Source: a virus
Taxonomy: Duplodnaviria; Heunggongvirae; Uroviricota; Caudoviricetes
Direction: 5' to 3' (one strand)
DNA length: 34,844 nt
Virus record (IMG/VR): IMGVR_UViG_2579778601_000008
Span: 1 to 34,844 of that record
The translations under genes and the position numbers were made by a program. This document shows, one piece after another, positions 3,238-12,494 of the stretch (positions are counted from its first letter, which is position 1; every line of letters begins with the position of its first letter). Below the pieces are notes generated by a model. That model was not told the DNA's origin. It worked only from the letters and a program-made list of their open reading frames with translations, and did no database searches.

Positions 3238-3509
3238 GTATTCGTATTGAAATTGGCGAACGTTATGTCGTTACCAGTGACAGCTTTCAGTTTATTCTCC
3301 ACGAGAAAAAGAGAGCGGAAAGCGGTAAAAACGCCGGTCAGGAATGGCTGTCGGTGGTTGGTTATTACCCGAAATTAAGCCAGCTCGTTTCCGGCCTGAT
3401 GCATCACGATATTCTGACCGGAAGCGCAAAGTCTTTTGCTGATTTAAACGTGCAGGTTGAGCAACTCAGCAAGCGTTGTTCAGAGGCTTTTGGCTCATAT
3501 GGCCGTTAA
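3234..3509 (+). CDS. Small early protein (position of P2 orf83)
   Basis: 91-aa ORF; its stop overlaps the start of gene A. Confidence 0.6.
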   Translation: MSIRIEIGERYVVTSDSFQFILHEKKRAESGKNAGQEWLSVVGYYPKLSQLVSGLMHHDILTGSAKSFADLNVQVEQLSKRCSEAFGSYGR

Positions 3510-5775
3510 AGCCTCCGGGCGTTTTGTCCCTCCGTCAGCATTTGCCGCAGGCACCGGTAAGGCGTTTACCGGTGCTTATGCATGGAACGCGCCACGCGAG
3601 GCTGTCGGGCGCGAAAGACCCCTTACACGTGACGAGATGCGTCAGGTGCAAGGGGTTTTATCCACGATTAACCGCCTGCCTTACTTTTTGCGCTCGCTGT
3701 TTACTTCACGCTATGACTACATCCGGCGCAATAAAAGCCCGGTGCACGGGTTTTATTTTCTCACATCCACTTTTCAGCGTCGTTTATGGCCGCGCATTGA
3801 GCGTGTGAATCAGCGCCATGAAATGAACACCGACGCGTCGTTGCTGTTTCTGGCAGAGCGTGGCCATTATGCGCGTCTGCCGGGGATGAATGACAAGGAG
3901 CTGAAAAAGTTTGCCGCCCGTATCTCATCGCAGCTTTTCATGATGTATGAGGAACTCTGCGATGCCTGGGTGGATGCGCATGGCGAAAAAGAATCGCTGT
4001 TTACGGATGAGGCGCAGGCTCACCTCTATGGTCATGTTGCTGGTGCTGCACGTGCTTTCAATATTTCCCCTCTCTACTGGAAAAAATACCGTAAAGGGCA
4101 GATGACCACGAGGCAGGCATATTCTGCCATTGCCCGTCTGTTTAACGATGAGTGGTGGACCCATCAGCTTAAAGGCCAGCGTATGCGCTGGCATGAGGCG
4201 TTACTGATTGCTGTCGGGGAGGTCAATAAAGACCGTTCTCCTTATGCCAGTAAACATGCCATTCGTGATGTGCGTGCACGCCGCCAGGCAAATCTGGAAT
4301 TTCTTAAATCGTGTGATCTCGAAAACAGGGAAACCGGCGAGCGCATCGACCTTATCAGTAAGGTGATGGGCAGTATTTCTAATCCTGAAATTCGCCGGAT
4401 GGAGCTGATGAACACCATTGCCGGTATTGAGCGTTACGCCGCAGCAGAGGGTGATGTGGGGATGTTTATCACGCTGACCGCGCCGTCAAAGTATCACCCG
4501 ACACGTCAGGTCAGAAAAGGCGAAAGTAAAACCGTCCAGCTAAATCACGGCTGGAACGATGAGGCATTTAATCCAAAGGATGCGCAGCGTTATCTCTGCC
4601 GTATCTGGAGCCTGATGCGCACGGCATTCAAGGATAATGATTTACAGGTCTACGGTTTGCGTGTCGTCGAGCCACACCACGACGGAACGCCGCACTGGCA
4701 TATGATGCTTTTTTGTAATCCGCGCCAGCGTAACCAGATTATCGAAATCATGCGTCGCTATGCGCTCAAAGAGGATGGCGACGAAAGAGGAGCCGCGCGA
4801 AACCGTTTTCAGGCAAAACACCTTAACCGGGGCGGTGCTGCGGGGTATATCGCGAAATACATCTCAAAAAACATCGACGGCTATGCACTGGATGGTCAGC
4901 TCGATAACGATACCGGCAGGCCGCTGAAAGACACTGCTGCGGCTGTTACCGCATGGGCGTCAACGTGGCGCATCCCGCAATTTAAAACGGTTGGTCTGCC
5001 GACAATGGGGGCTTACCGTGAACTACGCAAATTGCCGCGCGGCGTCAGCATTGCTGATGAGTTTGACGAGCGCGTCGAGGCTGCACGCGCCGCCGCAGAC
5101 AGTGGTGATTTTGCGTTGTATATCAGCGCGCAGGGTGGGGCAAATGTCCCGCGCGATTGTCAGACTGTCAGGGTCGCCCGTAGCCCGTCGGATGACGTTA
5201 ACGAGTACGAGGAAGAGGTCGAGAGGGTGGTCGGCATTTACGCGCCGCATCTCGGCGCGCGTCATATTCATATCACCAGAACGACGGACTGGCGCATTGT
5301 GCCGAAAGTTCCGGTCGTTGAGCCTTTGACTTTAAAAAGCGGCATCGCCGCGCCTCGGAGTCCTGTCAATAACTGTGGAAAGCTCACCGGTGGTGATACT
5401 TCGTTACCGGCTCCCACACCTTCTGAGCACGCCGCAGCAGTGCTTAATCTGGTTGATGACGATGTTATCGAATGGAATGACCCGGAGGTCGTGAGGGCGC
5501 TCAGGGGCGCATTAAAACACGACCGGAGAACGCCAAACCGTCAGCAAAGAAACGGAAGCCCGTTAAAACCGCATGAAATTGCACCATCGGCCAGACTGAC
5601 CCGGTCGGAACGATTGCAAATTACCCGTATCCGCGTTGATCTCGCTCAGAACGGTATCAGGCCGCAACGATGGGAGCTTGAGGCGCTGGCGCGTGGCGCG
5701 ACCGTAAATTATGACGGGAAACCTTTCACTTATCAGGTCGCTGATGATTGGCCGGGATTTTTGTTACCCATTTGA
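3499..5775 (+). CDS. A: Replication initiation protein A (rolling-circle nicking endonuclease)
   Basis: Start chosen at internal ATG 3499 (MAVKASGRFVPP...), which matches the P2 gpA N-terminus as I recall it; ~758 aa; follows B and the small orfs. Confidence 0.9.
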   Translation: MAVKASGRFVPPSAFAAGTGKAFTGAYAWNAPREAVGRERPLTRDEMRQVQGVLSTINRLPYFLRSLFTSRYDYIRRNKSPVHGFYFLTSTFQRRLWPRIERVNQRHEMNTDASLLFLAERGHYARLPGMNDKELKKFAARISSQLFMMYEELCDAWVDAHGEKESLFTDEAQAHLYGHVAGAARAFNISPLYWKKYRKGQMTTRQAYSAIARLFNDEWWTHQLKGQRMRWHEALLIAVGEVNKDRSPYASKHAIRDVRARRQANLEFLKSCDLENRETGERIDLISKVMGSISNPEIRRMELMNTIAGIERYAAAEGDVGMFITLTAPSKYHPTRQVRKGESKTVQLNHGWNDEAFNPKDAQRYLCRIWSLMRTAFKDNDLQVYGLRVVEPHHDGTPHWHMMLFCNPRQRNQIIEIMRRYALKEDGDERGAARNRFQAKHLNRGGAAGYIAKYISKNIDGYALDGQLDNDTGRPLKDTAAAVTAWASTWRIPQFKTVGLPTMGAYRELRKLPRGVSIADEFDERVEAARAAADSGDFALYISAQGGANVPRDCQTVRVARSPSDDVNEYEEEVERVVGIYAPHLGARHIHITRTTDWRIVPKVPVVEPLTLKSGIAAPRSPVNNCGKLTGGDTSLPAPTPSEHAAAVLNLVDDDVIEWNDPEVVRALRGALKHDRRTPNRQQRNGSPLKPHEIAPSARLTRSERLQITRIRVDLAQNGIRPQRWELEALARGATVNYDGKPFTYQVADDWPGFLLPI

Positions 5776-5992
5776 GTAAAAATACAGCGTGATTTTATAT
5801 GTCTTTGAATGGATTATGCGAAGCACCTCTAAGGTAGATGAGGAGCAATAGCGTGTTGAATCAGAAGGCTAAATTGTATTGAATCGTTAGCATGTAATTG
5901 AAGGCAGCTATTTGATTCGAGTCATAAAAGAGCATCTATTTCGGTTAATAAAACCATTGCGAGTGACTTTATGTCGAAGCATAATTCATCTC

Positions 5993-6006
5993 GAGCGAAG
6001 TCTTGC
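5993..6006. repeat. 14-bp direct repeat GAGCGAAGTCTTGC, copy 1 (preceded by GAGTGACT at 5961)
   Basis: Exact 14-mer recurs at 6257-6270; both copies are preceded by GAGTGACT. Confidence 0.8.
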
Positions 6007-6035
6007 TAGTCTTTCATCGGATTGATGACGGGCGC

Positions 6036-6067
6036 AAAAAAACCACCCTGGCAGGTGGTTTTTTTGT
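6036..6067. terminator. Bidirectional intrinsic terminator
   Basis: GC-rich hairpin (AACCACC..GGTGGTT) flanked by A7 upstream and T7 downstream; lies downstream of gene A (+) and of the small minus-strand ORF. Confidence 0.7.
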
Positions 6068-6077
6068 TTGAAGCATA

Positions 6078-6191
6078 CTAAAGAAAAATACTTACATGGA
6101 TATTACTGACGTTTACTGACAAACCACTCGGACTACCATATGGATAGCCAAAGAGGGCCAGAACGAGAATGCAGTAATAGCACTTCTTCAT
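6078..6191 (-). CDS. Candidate small hydrophobic peptide (37 aa), possible type-I-toxin-like or small membrane protein
   Basis: My own translation, not in the supplied ORF track (below its length cutoff): MKKCYYCILVLALFGYPYGSPSGLSVNVSNIHVSIFL. AGGAGG lies 4 nt upstream of the ATG; the stop codon is directly followed by the intrinsic terminator. Confidence 0.35.
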   Translation of the reverse strand: MKKCYYCILVLALFGYPYGSPSGLSVNVSNIHVSIFL

Positions 6192-6256
6192 ATCGCCTCC
6201 TGTAAGCAGAGGGCAATTTCCGCCGATATATGCGCTTCTAAGGCGGAGTGACTATT

Positions 6257-6270
6257 GAGCGAAGTCTTGC
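6257..6270. repeat. 14-bp direct repeat GAGCGAAGTCTTGC, copy 2 (preceded by GAGTGACT at 6246)
   Basis: Exact match to 5993-6006; the two copies bracket the terminator and the 37-codon ORF. Confidence 0.8.
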
Positions 6271-6912
6271 CCTGAAATAATGCTCTGTTTAAACGCAAAG
6301 TGATCTGGCATATCACCGAACAGAGGACCTGAACAACACAACATATAGTATGTCGTTGTTTCTGGTTGCATTTTATGTTGTGTAATACTGGTTTTGCATC
6401 AAGGATGTTTGAGCTTTTTTTGATATAGCTCAAAGTAAAAAGCAGAGACTACGGATGATAAGGTCTTGAAAGCAATGTAAATTTTTTAAAGTTGTGAGTG
6501 GCTAGAAATGCACAGTTTCAATATGGCGGATTTAAACAAGTAATTAAAAATAGCGACATAAATTCCAATAAAATCATTAAGTTGCGTTTTCTGTGGAAAC
6601 TTCGGTGACTCTGAAATTTTCTTTTAGTGTCGCTGAGGTTTAACAACGCGCTGCGCAAGTAGTTAGTGTTTTTTTAACTCAATATTCTGATTTATAAGGT
6701 TTTTTATAAATCGTGGACTGGTTGCGCGTATTCATCTCGTGTTATCAGCAAAGATAAGCTCTATATGCAGAACGGAATGCATATATGATGTCGAAAATGT
6801 TATGGGAAAACGTGGATTAGTGTTATAGTAATGGCTGAAAAACAGCCTTGACATAAAATAACAACTGTGATATGGCTGTGCATACTTAACTTTTTTAACG
6901 TAGGAGGCAACC

Positions 6913-7398
6913 ATGAGCTATGCAGCTAAAAAACTGCTTGACCGCTATTGGGATCGCCGACTACCTGTCGATCCGTTTAAGCTTGCTAAAGCGTGGGGTG
7001 CTCGTGTTGAAGCACTTGAGGAATCGGCTTATAACAACGATGGGTTAAGCGGTCTGGCTGTCATCAAAAAGGGTGTCCATAGGATTTATTTTGATTCTAG
7101 TGAACATTCTAATCGTCAACGTTTTACTGTTGCACACGAGTTAGGTCATCATGTGCTGGGGCATACCCAGGACGGAGAGTACCATCGGGATAATGTCGGG
7201 AATTATTCAACAGGTGCTCGTGATTACCGTGAGGTTGAAGCAAACAAGTTTGCTGCTGAGTTGTTAATGCCTGAGTCTGCTATACGTCAATTGGTATCCA
7301 GAGAAGGTATTGATAGCACTTTGAGATTAGCAAGCATCTTTAATGTATCAGAAGCCGCTATGCATTGGCGCTTAAAGAGCTTAGGAATGGCTTATTAA
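6913..7398 (+). CDS. ImmA/IrrE-family (DUF955-like) zinc metallopeptidase, no attached HTH domain
   Basis: 161-aa ORF with HEXXH motif in ...FTVAHELGHHVLGH...; AGGAGG 6 nt upstream of the ATG; AT-rich upstream region with TTGACA at 6848. Confidence 0.75.
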   Translation: MSYAAKKLLDRYWDRRLPVDPFKLAKAWGARVEALEESAYNNDGLSGLAVIKKGVHRIYFDSSEHSNRQRFTVAHELGHHVLGHTQDGEYHRDNVGNYSTGARDYREVEANKFAAELLMPESAIRQLVSREGIDSTLRLASIFNVSEAAMHWRLKSLGMAY

Positions 7399-7425
7399 TT
7401 AGCCTTTAACTTTTAACCTGTTTAA

Positions 7426-7462
7426 AATCACCTTTACGTTTGTACATGTAAGGGTGATTTTT
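7426..7462 (+). terminator. Hairpin plus T-tract between the peptidase and membrane-protein genes (possible attenuator or partial terminator)
   Basis: Inverted repeat AAATCACCTTT...AAGGGTGATTT followed by TTTTTT running into the ATG at 7465. Confidence 0.4.
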
Positions 7463-7464
7463 TT

Positions 7465-8064
7465 ATGGCTGATATTGATTTATCTGGACAGTCCCCAGAG
7501 CAAGGAACCACTCCTAAGGGCGATTCAGATCCTGATATCCTTATAAGGCGAGATAGACGGGATGGTATAGAGCGTAGAAGTATGCGATTAGTGCTCTCTG
7601 CCGTTGTGCTTTGTTTTGCTTGTACATTTCTATGGCAGGGGCTTAACTTTGCTTTGGCTGTTGGAAATGGCTTGCTGGAAGCGAAAAGCAGTATTGCCGC
7701 AGCGATAACACAAAAAGTAGATACACAAACTTGTGTTTCAGCAGAAAAATGTTCTGCTTTATCTTCGGATCCGAAGATGGCTGATGAGAGGATAACACCA
7801 TCTTCAGACACTAATAAAGTTAGAAAATCTATTTCTGGTTTATCCACCGATTGGTTATCGGCCAGTTCTCTAATAGCTATTGTTGCATTCATCCTTGGTG
7901 TGGGTTTAACTTTGCTTTTGACTCTTCTTAAATCAGCATTTCAACACCCGACAGATAAAGACTTTAGAACAAAGTCGACATCTAATACTATTGAGTTGGC
8001 CACGCCAATCAGTGAATTAATAATTGGTGTTCTGAATATAATTAAAGACAAACTATCTAAGTAA
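7465..8064 (+). CDS. Predicted two-TM membrane protein of unknown function
   Basis: 199-aa ORF; charged N-terminus (RRDRRDGIERR); hydrophobic segments LVLSAVVLCFACTFLWQGLNFALAV and SLIAIVAFILGVGLTLLLTLL; two Cys in the intervening loop; amphipathic C-terminus; co-oriented with the peptidase gene. Confidence 0.6.
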   Translation: MADIDLSGQSPEQGTTPKGDSDPDILIRRDRRDGIERRSMRLVLSAVVLCFACTFLWQGLNFALAVGNGLLEAKSSIAAAITQKVDTQTCVSAEKCSALSSDPKMADERITPSSDTNKVRKSISGLSTDWLSASSLIAIVAFILGVGLTLLLTLLKSAFQHPTDKDFRTKSTSNTIELATPISELIIGVLNIIKDKLSK

Positions 8065-8146
8065 AGCATTAGTTGTGATTTTTTATTGGTTTTAGTGATA
8101 ATACATCTCCAGTACTTATTGTTACTGGAGAGTATTTTTAGTCGTT

Positions 8147-9088
8147 TTATATTTTTAATGTTAGTGAATGATATTCACGAGAGTTCACGTTCGATGTGAT
8201 GTAATCGGGGGCGTTAACACCAAGAATCGCAACGAGTAATCGGCAAATTAAAGCCTGCATTTGTTGTAATATGTCATCTCCATATTGATAATTGTTAATA
8301 GTGGTAAAGCCAAGTGGTTGACCATGAAACATAGCTTCATGAAAGTTTTCATTGCGGATGTTTGTAATGTTTTTTTTGCCTGTAACCCATGATGGTCGTG
8401 GTATTCCATAAGTTTTGCAGATCCACTTCAAGCGCCTGGAGTGATTTAGAGTCTTTTCTGTACACTTGTTCTTTTCTGCCCATGTTAAAGCAAAGCAACT
8501 ATCCAGTGCCATATAAAGATACTGGAATTTTTCGAAGCTAAGGTATTGTGGGTTTTGGGATAAAAATAGTGCATGCACTATTGCTGCTATATTTATTGGT
8601 GCGTGTTTGGTTTTTGTCTCGCTAGACATGTATTTGAGTGCTAATTCTATAACCTCTTTTTCAGAGCACTTGACCAGAATAAAGTCAGTTAATTTGCTGG
8701 GTTTTATTGGGGTTGCGTCTAAAAAACCGGCATCAGTAGTTGTTAATCTTATCCCTTTGAAAAAAGACAGACACCACACAGCAAAATTGAGAGTTTCTAG
8801 TGAAGATGTATTTTTTAATTTTAGTGAGTGTGTTTTGGGTAAGCCAAATACTCGTTGGCTAAAAGGCATTGTGGATATGCCTCCATTGAGGTTATATACT
8901 TCTTGGTTTCCTGGGTATATCCAACCGTTAATAACATTTCTGTGATTGTTTATAAGATTTGTTTTTTCCGCTAGACCGGGTAAAGTAAGTAAAGAAAAAT
9001 CATCAGTTTCAACGTTAACTTCTACTGGATAGTATCCAAACTCAGCTTCAATATCATTGGATTGCTGTTCGTCAACTTTACCTTGCAT
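8147..9088 (-). CDS. Hypothetical 313-aa protein with RNxxxH motif (possible HEPN-type nuclease)
   Basis: Long ORF in a markedly AT-rich stretch, convergent with the two upstream genes; GGAG 6 nt upstream of ATG; motif RNENFH near residue 245; no P-loop or HEXXH seen. Confidence 0.65.
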   Translation of the reverse strand: MQGKVDEQQSNDIEAEFGYYPVEVNVETDDFSLLTLPGLAEKTNLINNHRNVINGWIYPGNQEVYNLNGGISTMPFSQRVFGLPKTHSLKLKNTSSLETLNFAVWCLSFFKGIRLTTTDAGFLDATPIKPSKLTDFILVKCSEKEVIELALKYMSSETKTKHAPINIAAIVHALFLSQNPQYLSFEKFQYLYMALDSCFALTWAEKNKCTEKTLNHSRRLKWICKTYGIPRPSWVTGKKNITNIRNENFHEAMFHGQPLGFTTINNYQYGDDILQQMQALICRLLVAILGVNAPDYITSNVNSREYHSLTLKI

Positions 9089-9326
9089 ACATTGCTCCGG
9101 TCAAAAATAGGCTCGATAATTCTCGTAAGCCTATCATGTTCGCAAAGTATCCATACCTGTGGATTTTGTAAATTTAAGTTGATTTGTCATTAAATAAGCC
9201 GTTGCATGCAACAAGTGAATGTTTTTGCATGCGTCGGGGATGTCCGTTCAGGCTGCGTGCGGTCAGGACTGGTGCGGATCCATAGTATCTATGCAACTGC
9301 ATTAAAACCGCCCCATGAAGCGGGCG

Positions 9327-9345
9327 GGCGAGGCGGGGAAAGCAC
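9327..9345. other. cos (cohesive end site) of P2-type phage
   Basis: GGCGAGGCGGGGAAAGCAC matches the 19-nt P2 cohesive end as I recall it; located just upstream of the portal gene Q. Confidence 0.7.
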
Positions 9346-9514: not shown

Positions 9515-10549
9515 TCAGCCGTTGTCAGTGTCCAGTGAGTAGTTTTTAAAGCGGATGACCTCCTGACCGAGCCAGCCGTTTATCTCGCGGATCCTGTCCT
9601 GTAGCGGGATAAGCTCATTGCGGACAAAGACCTTTGCCACTTTCTCAATATCACCCAGCGACCCGACGTTCTCCGGCTTGCCGCCCATCAACTGAAAGGG
9701 GATGCGGTGCGCGTCCAGCAGGTCAGCGGCGCTGGCTTTTTTGATATTAAAAAAATCGTCCTTCGTTGCCACTTCACTGAGCGGGATAATTTTGATGCCG
9801 TCGGCTTTCCCCTGTGGGGCATAGAGAAACAGATTTTTAAAGTTGTTGCGGCCTTTCGACTTCACCATGTTTTCGCGGAGCATTTCGATATCGTTGCGAT
9901 CCTGCACGGCATCGGTGACGTACATGATGTATCCGGCATGAGCACCGTTTTCGTAATACTTGCGGCGGAACAGCGTGGCTGATTCATTCAGCCAGGCAGA
10001 GTTAAGGGCGCTGAGATATTCCGGCAGGCCGTACAGCTCCTGATTAATATCCGGCTCCAGCAGGTGAAACACGGAACCGGGCGCGAAGGCTGTCGGTTCG
10101 TTGAAGGACGGCACCCACCAGTAAACATCCTCCTCCACGCCACGGCGGGTATATTTTGCCGGTGAGGTTTCCAGTCTGATGACCTTACCGGTGGTGCTGT
10201 AACGCTTTTCCAGAAACGCATTACCGAACACCAGAAAATCCAGCACAAAGCGGCTGAAATCCTGCTGGGACAGCCACGGATGCGGGATAAATGTCGAGGC
10301 CAGAATATTACGTTTGACGTAAATCGGTGAGCTGTGATGCACGGCAGCACGCAGGCTTTTTGCCAGACCAGTAAAGCTGACCGGTGGTTCATACCATCTG
10401 CCGTTACTGATGCACTCGACGTAATCCAGAATGTCACGGCGGTCGAGTACCGGCACCGGCTCACCAAAGGTGAATGCTTCCATTTTCGGGGCGCTGGCGG
10501 TCATTTTTTTTGCCGCAGGTTGCTGTGTTTTCCCTTTTTTCTTGCTCAT
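9515..10549 (-). CDS. Q: Portal protein (capsid portal vertex)
   Basis: 344-aa ORF; length and sequence agree with P2 gpQ as I recall it; start ATG overlaps the P stop (ATGA). Confidence 0.92.
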   Translation of the reverse strand: MSKKKGKTQQPAAKKMTASAPKMEAFTFGEPVPVLDRRDILDYVECISNGRWYEPPVSFTGLAKSLRAAVHHSSPIYVKRNILASTFIPHPWLSQQDFSRFVLDFLVFGNAFLEKRYSTTGKVIRLETSPAKYTRRGVEEDVYWWVPSFNEPTAFAPGSVFHLLEPDINQELYGLPEYLSALNSAWLNESATLFRRKYYENGAHAGYIMYVTDAVQDRNDIEMLRENMVKSKGRNNFKNLFLYAPQGKADGIKIIPLSEVATKDDFFNIKKASAADLLDAHRIPFQLMGGKPENVGSLGDIEKVAKVFVRNELIPLQDRIREINGWLGQEVIRFKNYSLDTDNG

Positions 10550-12321
10550 CAGTAAAACTCCAGAATGGTGGATGTCAGCGGGGTGCTGATACCGGCGGTG
10601 AGTGGCTCATTTAACAGGGCGTGCATGGTCGCCCAGGCGAGGTCGGCGTGGCTGGCTTCCTCGCTGCGGCTGGCCTCATAGGTGGCGCTGCGTCCGCTGC
10701 TGGTCATGGTCTTGCGGATAGCCATAAACGAGCTGGTGATGTCGGTGGCGCTGACGTCGTATTCCAGACAGCCACGGCGGATAACGTCTTTTGCCTTGAG
10801 CACCATTGCGGTTTTCATTTCCGGCGTGTAGCGGATATCACGCGCGGCGGGATAGAACGAGCGCACGAGCTGGAACACGCCGACACCGAGGCCGGTGGCA
10901 TCAATTCCGATGTATTCGACGTTGTATTTTTCGGTGAGTTTGCGGATGGATTCAGCCTGGGTGGCAAAGTCCATGCCTTTCCACTGGTGACGCTCAAGTA
11001 TTCTGAATTTGCCACCGGCCACCACCGGCGGTGCCAGCACCACGCATCCGGCGCTGTCGCCACGGTGTGACGGGTCGTAACCAATCCATACAGGGCGGGA
11101 GCCGAACGGATTGGCGGCAAACGGCGCATAGTCTTCCCATTCTTCCAGCGTATCGACCATGCAGCGTTGCAGCTCCTCGAACGGGAACACCGACGCCTTG
11201 TCGTCAACAAATTCACACATGAACAGGTTTTTAAAATCGTCGGCGCTGTTTTCGCGTTTAAGCTGCTCAATGTCGAACAGCGTGCAGCCACCTTTCAGGG
11301 CGTCCTCAATGGTGACAATCTGCCGCCACTGGCCGTCCGCACAGAGAAGCCCACCGGCAAGGGCGTTATGACTGACGTCGATTTCCACACGTTCGGCGGC
11401 GCTGGCGCGTCCCCGGTTGAACAGTTCACCCGACCAGAACGGGTAGGCGTCGTGCGCCAGCGTGGATGGGGTGGAGAAATAGGTCGAACGCAGGTGACTC
11501 TGTGAGGCCATACCTGATGCCACCTTACGCAGTACCTGAAAATTCGGGATCCAGAAAATCTCATCGACGTACAGGTCGCCGTTATGGCTCTGTGCGGTGT
11601 TGGAGTTGGTGCCGAGAAAAATCAGTTTTGCGCCGTTATTGCCCAGGACAATCGGGTCACCGGTCAGGTCAACGTCAACCAGACGGGCAAAGGCGATGAT
11701 GTATTCGCGGAACACATACGCCTGCGTTTTACTGGCCGACAGAAAAATCTGGTTATGACCGGTTTTCAGGGCGCGCAGCAGCGCCTCGCGGGAAAAATAA
11801 AACGTTGCGCCAATCTGGCGGGATTTCAGAATATCGCGGATGCGGTGCTCAAGCCCGGCGCGATACCAGTGCAGCTGATAGTCGAAAGACTGCTTAAAGA
11901 AAATCTGCTCCAGCTTTTCGATGGCCTCGTCACTGAAAAAATTCTTTTTCGGTTTGCGACGCCCGCCTTTGTTGCGGTTAGCGACGTTCGGATTAAGGTC
12001 TGCCTCGTTGCCGGTCTGACTGTAGCGGTTGACCCGTGCCAGTCGTTCAATCTGGCGTCCGAGCAGGTCAATTTCCTTGAAGTCACCGCCGGTTTTCTGC
12101 GGTTTGATGATGAGCTGGGTCAGTCGCGCTTCCAGACTCATTTCGACACGGCTGATGGGGGCAACGCTGTCCCAGCCGTCGCGCTGTTTCCAGCTCTGCA
12201 CCGTCGGGCGTTTCATCTGCAACATGGCGGCAATCTGCGGCACGGAAAACCCCTGCCAGTACAGCAGCGCCGCCTGACGACGCGGGTCGTGTAAAAGAGT
12301 GGTGTCTGTGGTGATGGTCAT
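10549..12321 (-). CDS. P: Terminase large (ATPase) subunit
   Basis: Start chosen at the internal Met (MTITTDTTLLHDPRR...), giving 590 aa as in P2 gpP; transcribed with Q, divergent from O. Confidence 0.92.
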   Translation of the reverse strand: MTITTDTTLLHDPRRQAALLYWQGFSVPQIAAMLQMKRPTVQSWKQRDGWDSVAPISRVEMSLEARLTQLIIKPQKTGGDFKEIDLLGRQIERLARVNRYSQTGNEADLNPNVANRNKGGRRKPKKNFFSDEAIEKLEQIFFKQSFDYQLHWYRAGLEHRIRDILKSRQIGATFYFSREALLRALKTGHNQIFLSASKTQAYVFREYIIAFARLVDVDLTGDPIVLGNNGAKLIFLGTNSNTAQSHNGDLYVDEIFWIPNFQVLRKVASGMASQSHLRSTYFSTPSTLAHDAYPFWSGELFNRGRASAAERVEIDVSHNALAGGLLCADGQWRQIVTIEDALKGGCTLFDIEQLKRENSADDFKNLFMCEFVDDKASVFPFEELQRCMVDTLEEWEDYAPFAANPFGSRPVWIGYDPSHRGDSAGCVVLAPPVVAGGKFRILERHQWKGMDFATQAESIRKLTEKYNVEYIGIDATGLGVGVFQLVRSFYPAARDIRYTPEMKTAMVLKAKDVIRRGCLEYDVSATDITSSFMAIRKTMTSSGRSATYEASRSEEASHADLAWATMHALLNEPLTAGISTPLTSTILEFY

Positions 12322-12494
12322 GAATACCTCGCCGTGATGAATACACGGCAAGGCTACTGAGTCGCGCCCCGCGATTCGCTAAGGTGCTGTTGTGTCAGTG
12401 ATAAGCCATCCGGGACTGATGGCGGAGGATGCGCATCGTCGGGAAACTGATGCCGACATGTGACTCCTCTAATCACTATTCAGGACTCCTGACA
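12322..12494. promoter_or_regulatory. Divergent late promoter region between P and O (expected Ogr-dependent)
   Basis: Position between divergently transcribed late operons; partial dyad CCGTGATGAATACACGG. Specific Ogr sites not resolved. Confidence 0.45.

Follow-up and report, generated by a model that had tools for sequence, protein, structure and literature searches.

A prophage-borne gene of the P2 cos-proximal hotspot encodes a putative single-protein HEPN-type abortive-infection nuclease

Single-protein HEPN nucleases such as HepS, ApeA and DARNA are the current models for coupling infection sensing to tRNA cleavage. HepS, encoded by the Gifsy-1 prophage of Salmonella, is an abortive-infection anticodon nuclease that is activated by a phage protein (PMC13043305), and ApeA cleaves tRNA anticodon loops (Gao 2020; bioRxiv 10.64898/2026.01.26.701840). 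Here we investigated ORF313, a gene for a protein of 313 amino acids located at positions 8147–9088 (stop codon included) on the minus strand of the virus record IMGVR_UViG_2579778601_000008, whose 34,844 nt are called the window below. An earlier note, made from the sequence alone, had proposed a single-gene RNase-type defence protein, and this proposal is supported computationally by conservation, predicted fold and gene context. Judging from sequence and model, the protein most likely represents a new family among single-protein HEPN abortive-infection nucleases of the HepS, ApeA and DARNA kind. We consider it fairly probable that ORF313 is a self-sufficient, prophage-borne HEPN-type abortive-infection nuclease that works by the mechanism outlined below.

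The protein contains a single Rx4-6H arrangement, RNENFH (R245–H250; 8339–8356, minus strand), which the earlier note had singled out with the warning that one motif of this length may occur by chance. Shuffling the protein produced an Rx4H in 21% and an RNx3H in 1.7% of the shuffles, and the bare motif without conservation is indeed weak evidence that does not go beyond chance. It is lifted above this level by its conservation: R245 and H250 are invariant in both of our alignments (63 and 88 homologues), and in the larger one, whose members are 25–49% identical to the query at a mean column identity of 29%, only six columns are invariant at all (G112, E186, R245, H250, G260 and R283). Since the pair is conserved across such divergent homologues, the R245/H250 motif is the probable active site. 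N246 and E251 are each conserved in 94% of the 88 homologues, and the family consensus of the motif reads hydrophobic-R-N-x-x-hydrophobic-H-E-[AG]-hydrophobic. Anantharaman et al. are said to have named, in 2013, a polar residue (N, D or H) right after the motif arginine as a criterion for the HEPN superfamily; N246 is such a residue, and it stands within a conserved Rx4-6H.

AlphaFold2 yielded a model with a predicted local distance difference test score (pLDDT) of 85 and a predicted template modelling score (pTM) of 0.86 from the first alignment, and the topology was unchanged with a more diverse alignment (pLDDT 93.8, pTM 0.92). The C-terminal part (residues ~160–313; 8150–8611, minus strand), which holds the invariant E186, R245, H250, G260 and R283, is predicted to form a helical HEPN-like domain with helices at residues 163–176, 184–206, 216–227, 241–250 and 270–288. 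R245, N246 and H250 are carried by helix 241–250 (pLDDT there 95), which places the arginine and the histidine on a helix of a HEPN-like bundle, as the earlier note had suggested checking by structure prediction. In the model the helices run up and down as a bundle, the motif sits on one of the core helices and there is a likeness to solved HEPN domains; the bundle resembles HEPN domains more closely than anything else in the PDB. Two KNTase-type relatives were also listed in the structure comparison, and a Foldseek search against PDB and BFVD, run before the model with pLDDT 93.8, returned no match with E < 0.1.

The sequence-level searches connected the protein with no known family. Neither Pfam, PADLOC and NCBIfam nor hhalign gave a significant sequence or profile match to any described HEPN family. 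When Pfam was searched with the protein, with 151 members of its family and with the consensus of the hidden Markov model, the best hits, none of them significant, came from single members (RiboL-PSP, E = 0.074; Apea, E = 0.15). By hhalign the family reached 0.2% probability against a 9-sequence MAE_28990/RiboL-PSP alignment built here and showed no relationship to single Ymh and DUF4145 HEPN sequences, while a scan of ten longer family members for fusions revealed nothing significant. Across Pfam, PADLOC, NCBIfam and PHROGs the protein matched only PHROG 5937, which is of unknown function. The N-terminus of RNR R2 (PDB sequence-profile search, E about 0.03) is a chance-level hit in which K and L stand where R and H should, and the UniRef cluster name 'Apea-like HEPN domain-containing protein' on one homologue was not reproduced by the Pfam scan. 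At the level of sequence the C-terminal domain belongs to no described HEPN family, and because all sequence-level tests of HEPN membership failed, we term it HEPN-like on the basis of its motif and predicted fold.

The N-terminal alpha/beta domain (residues ~13–155; 8624–9052, minus strand) is beta-rich in the predicted structure, and the two halves of the protein are equally conserved (mean top-residue frequency 0.46 in the N-terminal vs 0.45 in the C-terminal half). Conservation in the family peaks within this domain, at residues ~102–128, and W56, T86, H87, R114 and D135 are near-invariant. A different reading of the protein would start from this patch: the R/H motif and helical domain might serve ligand or nucleic-acid binding or regulation rather than RNA cleavage, or the chemistry might be centred on H87, R114 and D135. 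We regard such a non-RNase function as unlikely. Should the protein have no role in defence, the invariant pair would still mark an uncharacterised enzyme in many prophages.

For a HEPN-type nuclease, the N-terminal domain would be a sensor, regulatory or substrate-binding domain. Apart from a faint RyR-domain-like signal, no relative of it could be detected. This signal covers the first ~55 profile positions (residues ~13–55; 8924–9052, minus strand; PDB 6uhi, E = 0.0023; single-domain chains, 0.08–0.3), and the alignment places the conserved P21 and W56-x-Y58 opposite the P and GWxYG of RyR. It was absent with a less diverse family profile and with Pfam RyR, and we classed the RyR hits of the PDB sequence-profile search (E = 0.002–0.3) as chance-level. 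An RyR-domain protein shares an Acinetobacter prophage with one homologue (locus L012, 2017–2898).

A word-indexed search identified 603 homologues, and an exhaustive search with a profile against 1.84 billion cluster representatives identified 675 clusters at E ≤ 1e-3. Because nearly all profile matches are ~300 amino acids long and span both halves of the protein, the two-domain architecture is fixed. Named members come from Salmonella, Citrobacter, Klebsiella, Enterobacter, Providencia, Aeromonas, Acinetobacter, Pseudomonas, Stenotrophomonas, Comamonas and a metagenome-assembled genome (MAG) of the Magnetococcales. ORF313 is carried by 98 of 5,426 complete E. coli genomes (~2%; 47 at ≥99% identity and about 49 at ~78%) and also by an isolated Salmonella phage. 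The protein is already catalogued, as ORF313 of P2-EC67 in the Odegrip era and as P2 system #11, but without domain call, name or experiment. Rousset et al. (2022) list #11 as a single-gene cassette between gpA and gpQ with 218 loci and no domain, and it is absent from their tables of tested systems; the protein in Table S5B differs from ORF313 by one residue, and the 'putative HEPN' that was tested there (pFR103) is DUF4209, not ORF313. System #11 is the 11th most frequent cassette of the E. coli P2 hotspot. A search by accession and phage name found no paper on the protein, and the supplements of the 2026 P2/P4 survey do not contain it either. Annotation resources have missed the family: every RefSeq copy is annotated as 'hypothetical protein', and there is no Pfam, PADLOC or NCBIfam model. 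That these ~675 clusters (at 50% identity, Proteobacteria) are an unrecognised HEPN family whose N-terminal domain is a new infection sensor coupled to an RNase is a serious possibility, which we put forward tentatively. If this sensor reading is true, ORF313 would add a new abortive-infection system that consists of one protein, and among the untested cassettes in the P2 hotspot it would be the most abundant; if validated, the family would be an extra one for defence detection tools and possibly a new trigger-sensing module.

The window is a P2-like prophage with genes for gpA (replication; 3457–5775, plus strand), the portal protein gpQ (9515–10549, minus strand) and the terminase gpP (10549–12351, minus strand). 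ORF313 lies in the cos-proximal accessory region, the stretch between gpA and gpQ, and this location is a validated anti-phage hotspot. The gene had been described as AT-rich, convergent with the other cargo and adjacent to cos, and all of this was borne out. It is the most AT-rich gene among those checked (36.6% GC vs 51.8% for the whole window), its start codon and an exact P2 cos site upstream are 239 bp apart, and it converges on two plus-strand cargo genes encoding an M78 peptidase (6913–7398) and a two-transmembrane (2-TM) protein (7465–8064). The peptidase is of the ImmA/IrrE type (Peptidase_M78; Pfam 3.8e-21) and matches the CBASS regulator CapP (PADLOC capP, E = 1e-30), and the 2-TM protein (199 amino acids) follows it, so that the pair spans 6913–8064. 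These three genes, adjacent here and in many genomes, could form one system in which the CapP/ImmA-like peptidase acts as regulator. However, tblastn revealed that ORF313 and the peptidase/2-TM module each occur without the other. P2DC1 has the pair and lacks ORF313, whereas P2-EC67 (AM157369) has a 74%-identical copy, its 'ORF313', next to ORF73 and ORF226 without either gene, and an allele of 78% DNA identity is found in a 186-like E. coli prophage beside dinI-like and small genes, again without the pair. The genes are furthermore convergent with a terminator between them, and Rousset et al. (2022) curated the pair as a separate cassette, #21 (148 loci, likewise outside the tested systems). 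We therefore see only a very slim chance for a three-gene system. ORF313 moves independently of its neighbours and is, by these computational comparisons, a mobile single gene associated with defence genes.

Two prophages deserve mention in their own right. In E. coli 1916D18 (NZ_CP046000; locus L019, 2767–6910) a prophage remnant whose truncated terminase and baseplate-V pseudogenes are fused behind the portal gene still has the peptidase gene, the 2-TM gene and an ORF313 of 100% identity in intact form, so that the cargo has outlived the phage. In the 186-like prophage of E. coli FDAARGOS_1280, an extra hypothetical gene of 327 amino acids (locus L018, 6315–7298) separates the ORF313 allele from the portal gene, so that this hotspot contains a second unknown cassette.

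Among homologues at 45–49% identity we observed no neighbour in common; those of Pseudomonas and Providencia are located in defence islands. The gene lies beside Gabija in an island of Pseudomonas aeruginosa, between DUF3800 and AbiH plus TIR on an integrase island or behind type I restriction-modification (RM) and GmrSD genes in Providencia, as a moron between prophage capsid and portal genes in Acinetobacter, directly downstream of an AlkZ-like gene in Aeromonas (loci L010 and L011, 4684–6963), and directly behind recC-recB-recD, followed by an SMC-like ATPase and a Schlafen/AlbA_2 protein, in the Magnetococcales MAG (locus L020, 1–12466). These neighbourhoods bear on the idea that the protein benefits the phage, for example as a counter-defence nuclease with which P2 would break down signalling nucleotides or RNA of the host. 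Csm6-type HEPN domains can degrade cyclic oligoadenylates and anti-defence genes are also found in phage hotspots, but the homologues are not confined to phages and occur in chromosomal defence islands near RM, Gabija and AbiH, and no ring-nuclease-like domain was detected; we judge this idea to be highly improbable.

The same neighbourhoods are informative for a HEPN-type toxin without a role in phage defence, either as a module for prophage addiction or stress or as a toxin whose nearby antitoxin, a small protein or an RNA, has escaped recognition. Many HEPN proteins are toxins of toxin–antitoxin pairs, e.g. HepT-MntA and AbiF-RNA, and homologues have intergenic gaps of 106–1,700 bp upstream of them, which also speaks for this reading. 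On the other hand, no neighbour is conserved across six genera, and the inspected loci with distinct neighbourhoods contain no MNT gene as in HEPN-MNT (HepT/MntA) pairs. Near ORF313 we found no upstream array of tandem repeats like that of type III antitoxins and no Rfam match above threshold, and the gene occupies the same hotspot position as old and tin. A pure toxin role seems improbable to us on these grounds.

For the preferred abortive-infection nuclease, a mechanism can be outlined by analogy with HepS, ApeA, DARNA, PrrC and Csm6. The protein would be made in the lysogen and would dimerise through its HEPN domains, so that two subunits together contribute their R245 and H250 to one metal-independent RNase site. 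The enzyme would stay inactive until an infection cue, perhaps a phage protein or a nucleic-acid-derived ligand, is bound by the N-terminal domain or at the domain interface. The activated enzyme would then cut tRNA anticodon loops or other RNA, stop translation and thereby halt the incoming phage.

By computation, ORF313 forms a transcription unit of its own within the accessory hotspot near the P2 cos site. The reading frame has an ATG start and 313 codons, with a GGAG ribosome-binding site 6 nt upstream (9095–9098, minus strand) and, ~75 bp upstream of the ATG, a sigma-70-like promoter candidate (ATGACA-16-CAAAAT; 9163–9190, minus strand) that is a consensus match only. A hairpin with a 9-bp stem (8106–8131) lies between the two convergent genes and has a terminator-like score on both strands. 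The exact 19-nt P2 cos cohesive-end sequence GGCGAGGCGGGGAAAGCAC (9327–9345, plus strand) marks the hotspot and has no part in the mechanism of the gene. A 15-bp tandem duplication, TCAGGCTGCGTGCGG in two copies (9248–9277), is located between cos and the promoter-like site. The lowest-GC 942-bp window of the sequence (35.4%, from 7901) overlaps ORF313, and GC contents are 40–44% in the two adjoining cargo genes and 53–57% in the gpA, gpQ and gpP core genes. Upstream of the peptidase there is no partner open reading frame with a helix-turn-helix (CapH/ImmR-like), which is unusual for such a protease. The 1.1-kb AT-rich stretch from gpA to the peptidase (5776–6912) is without a credible open reading frame and gives sub-threshold RNAI-like Rfam matches (6034–6144, minus strand; 27.8 bits vs 47 needed); a hydrophobic frame of 37 amino acids within it (6078–6191, minus strand) is an annotated coding sequence in Salmonella phage MET_P1_103_31. 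The stretch may represent a small RNA or a small-peptide module, or be what is left of a decayed gene.

Compared with the known systems, DARNA (PD-T7-3; bioRxiv 10.64898/2026.02.22.705581) has 456 amino acids with an N-terminal HEPN domain (R117/H122) and a Pds5-like helical C-terminal domain; this domain order is opposite to that of ORF313, there is no PADLOC match, and identity with DARNA was rejected. With Csm6, the ancillary RNase of type III CRISPR, only the helical part aligns, and ORF313 has no detected CARF domain and no CRISPR association. ApeA is likewise a defence system of one gene, with a diverged HEPN domain at the C-terminus and a ligand pocket formed by non-catalytic domains at the N-terminus, but it is ~580 amino acids long, almost all-helical and built of three domains, whereas ORF313 has 313 amino acids and an alpha/beta N-terminal domain. 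The protein gave no match to ApeA in PADLOC or to HEPN_Apea in Pfam (the best single family member being the one at E = 0.15), and identity was rejected here as well. The P2 genes old and tin share the cos-proximal gpA–gpQ locus and the logic of an exclusion gene expressed in the lysogen, although the proteins are unrelated and Old combines an ABC ATPase with TOPRIM. HepS (PMC13043305) differs in being a stand-alone HEPN protein of <250 amino acids with catalytic H105 from a lambdoid prophage, while in ORF313, compared by architecture only, the HEPN-like domain is C-terminal (motif at 245–250) behind an alpha/beta domain of ~150 amino acids. Both are nevertheless accessory genes of prophages without conserved partner genes, and in each case a single protein carries one Rx4-6H HEPN site.
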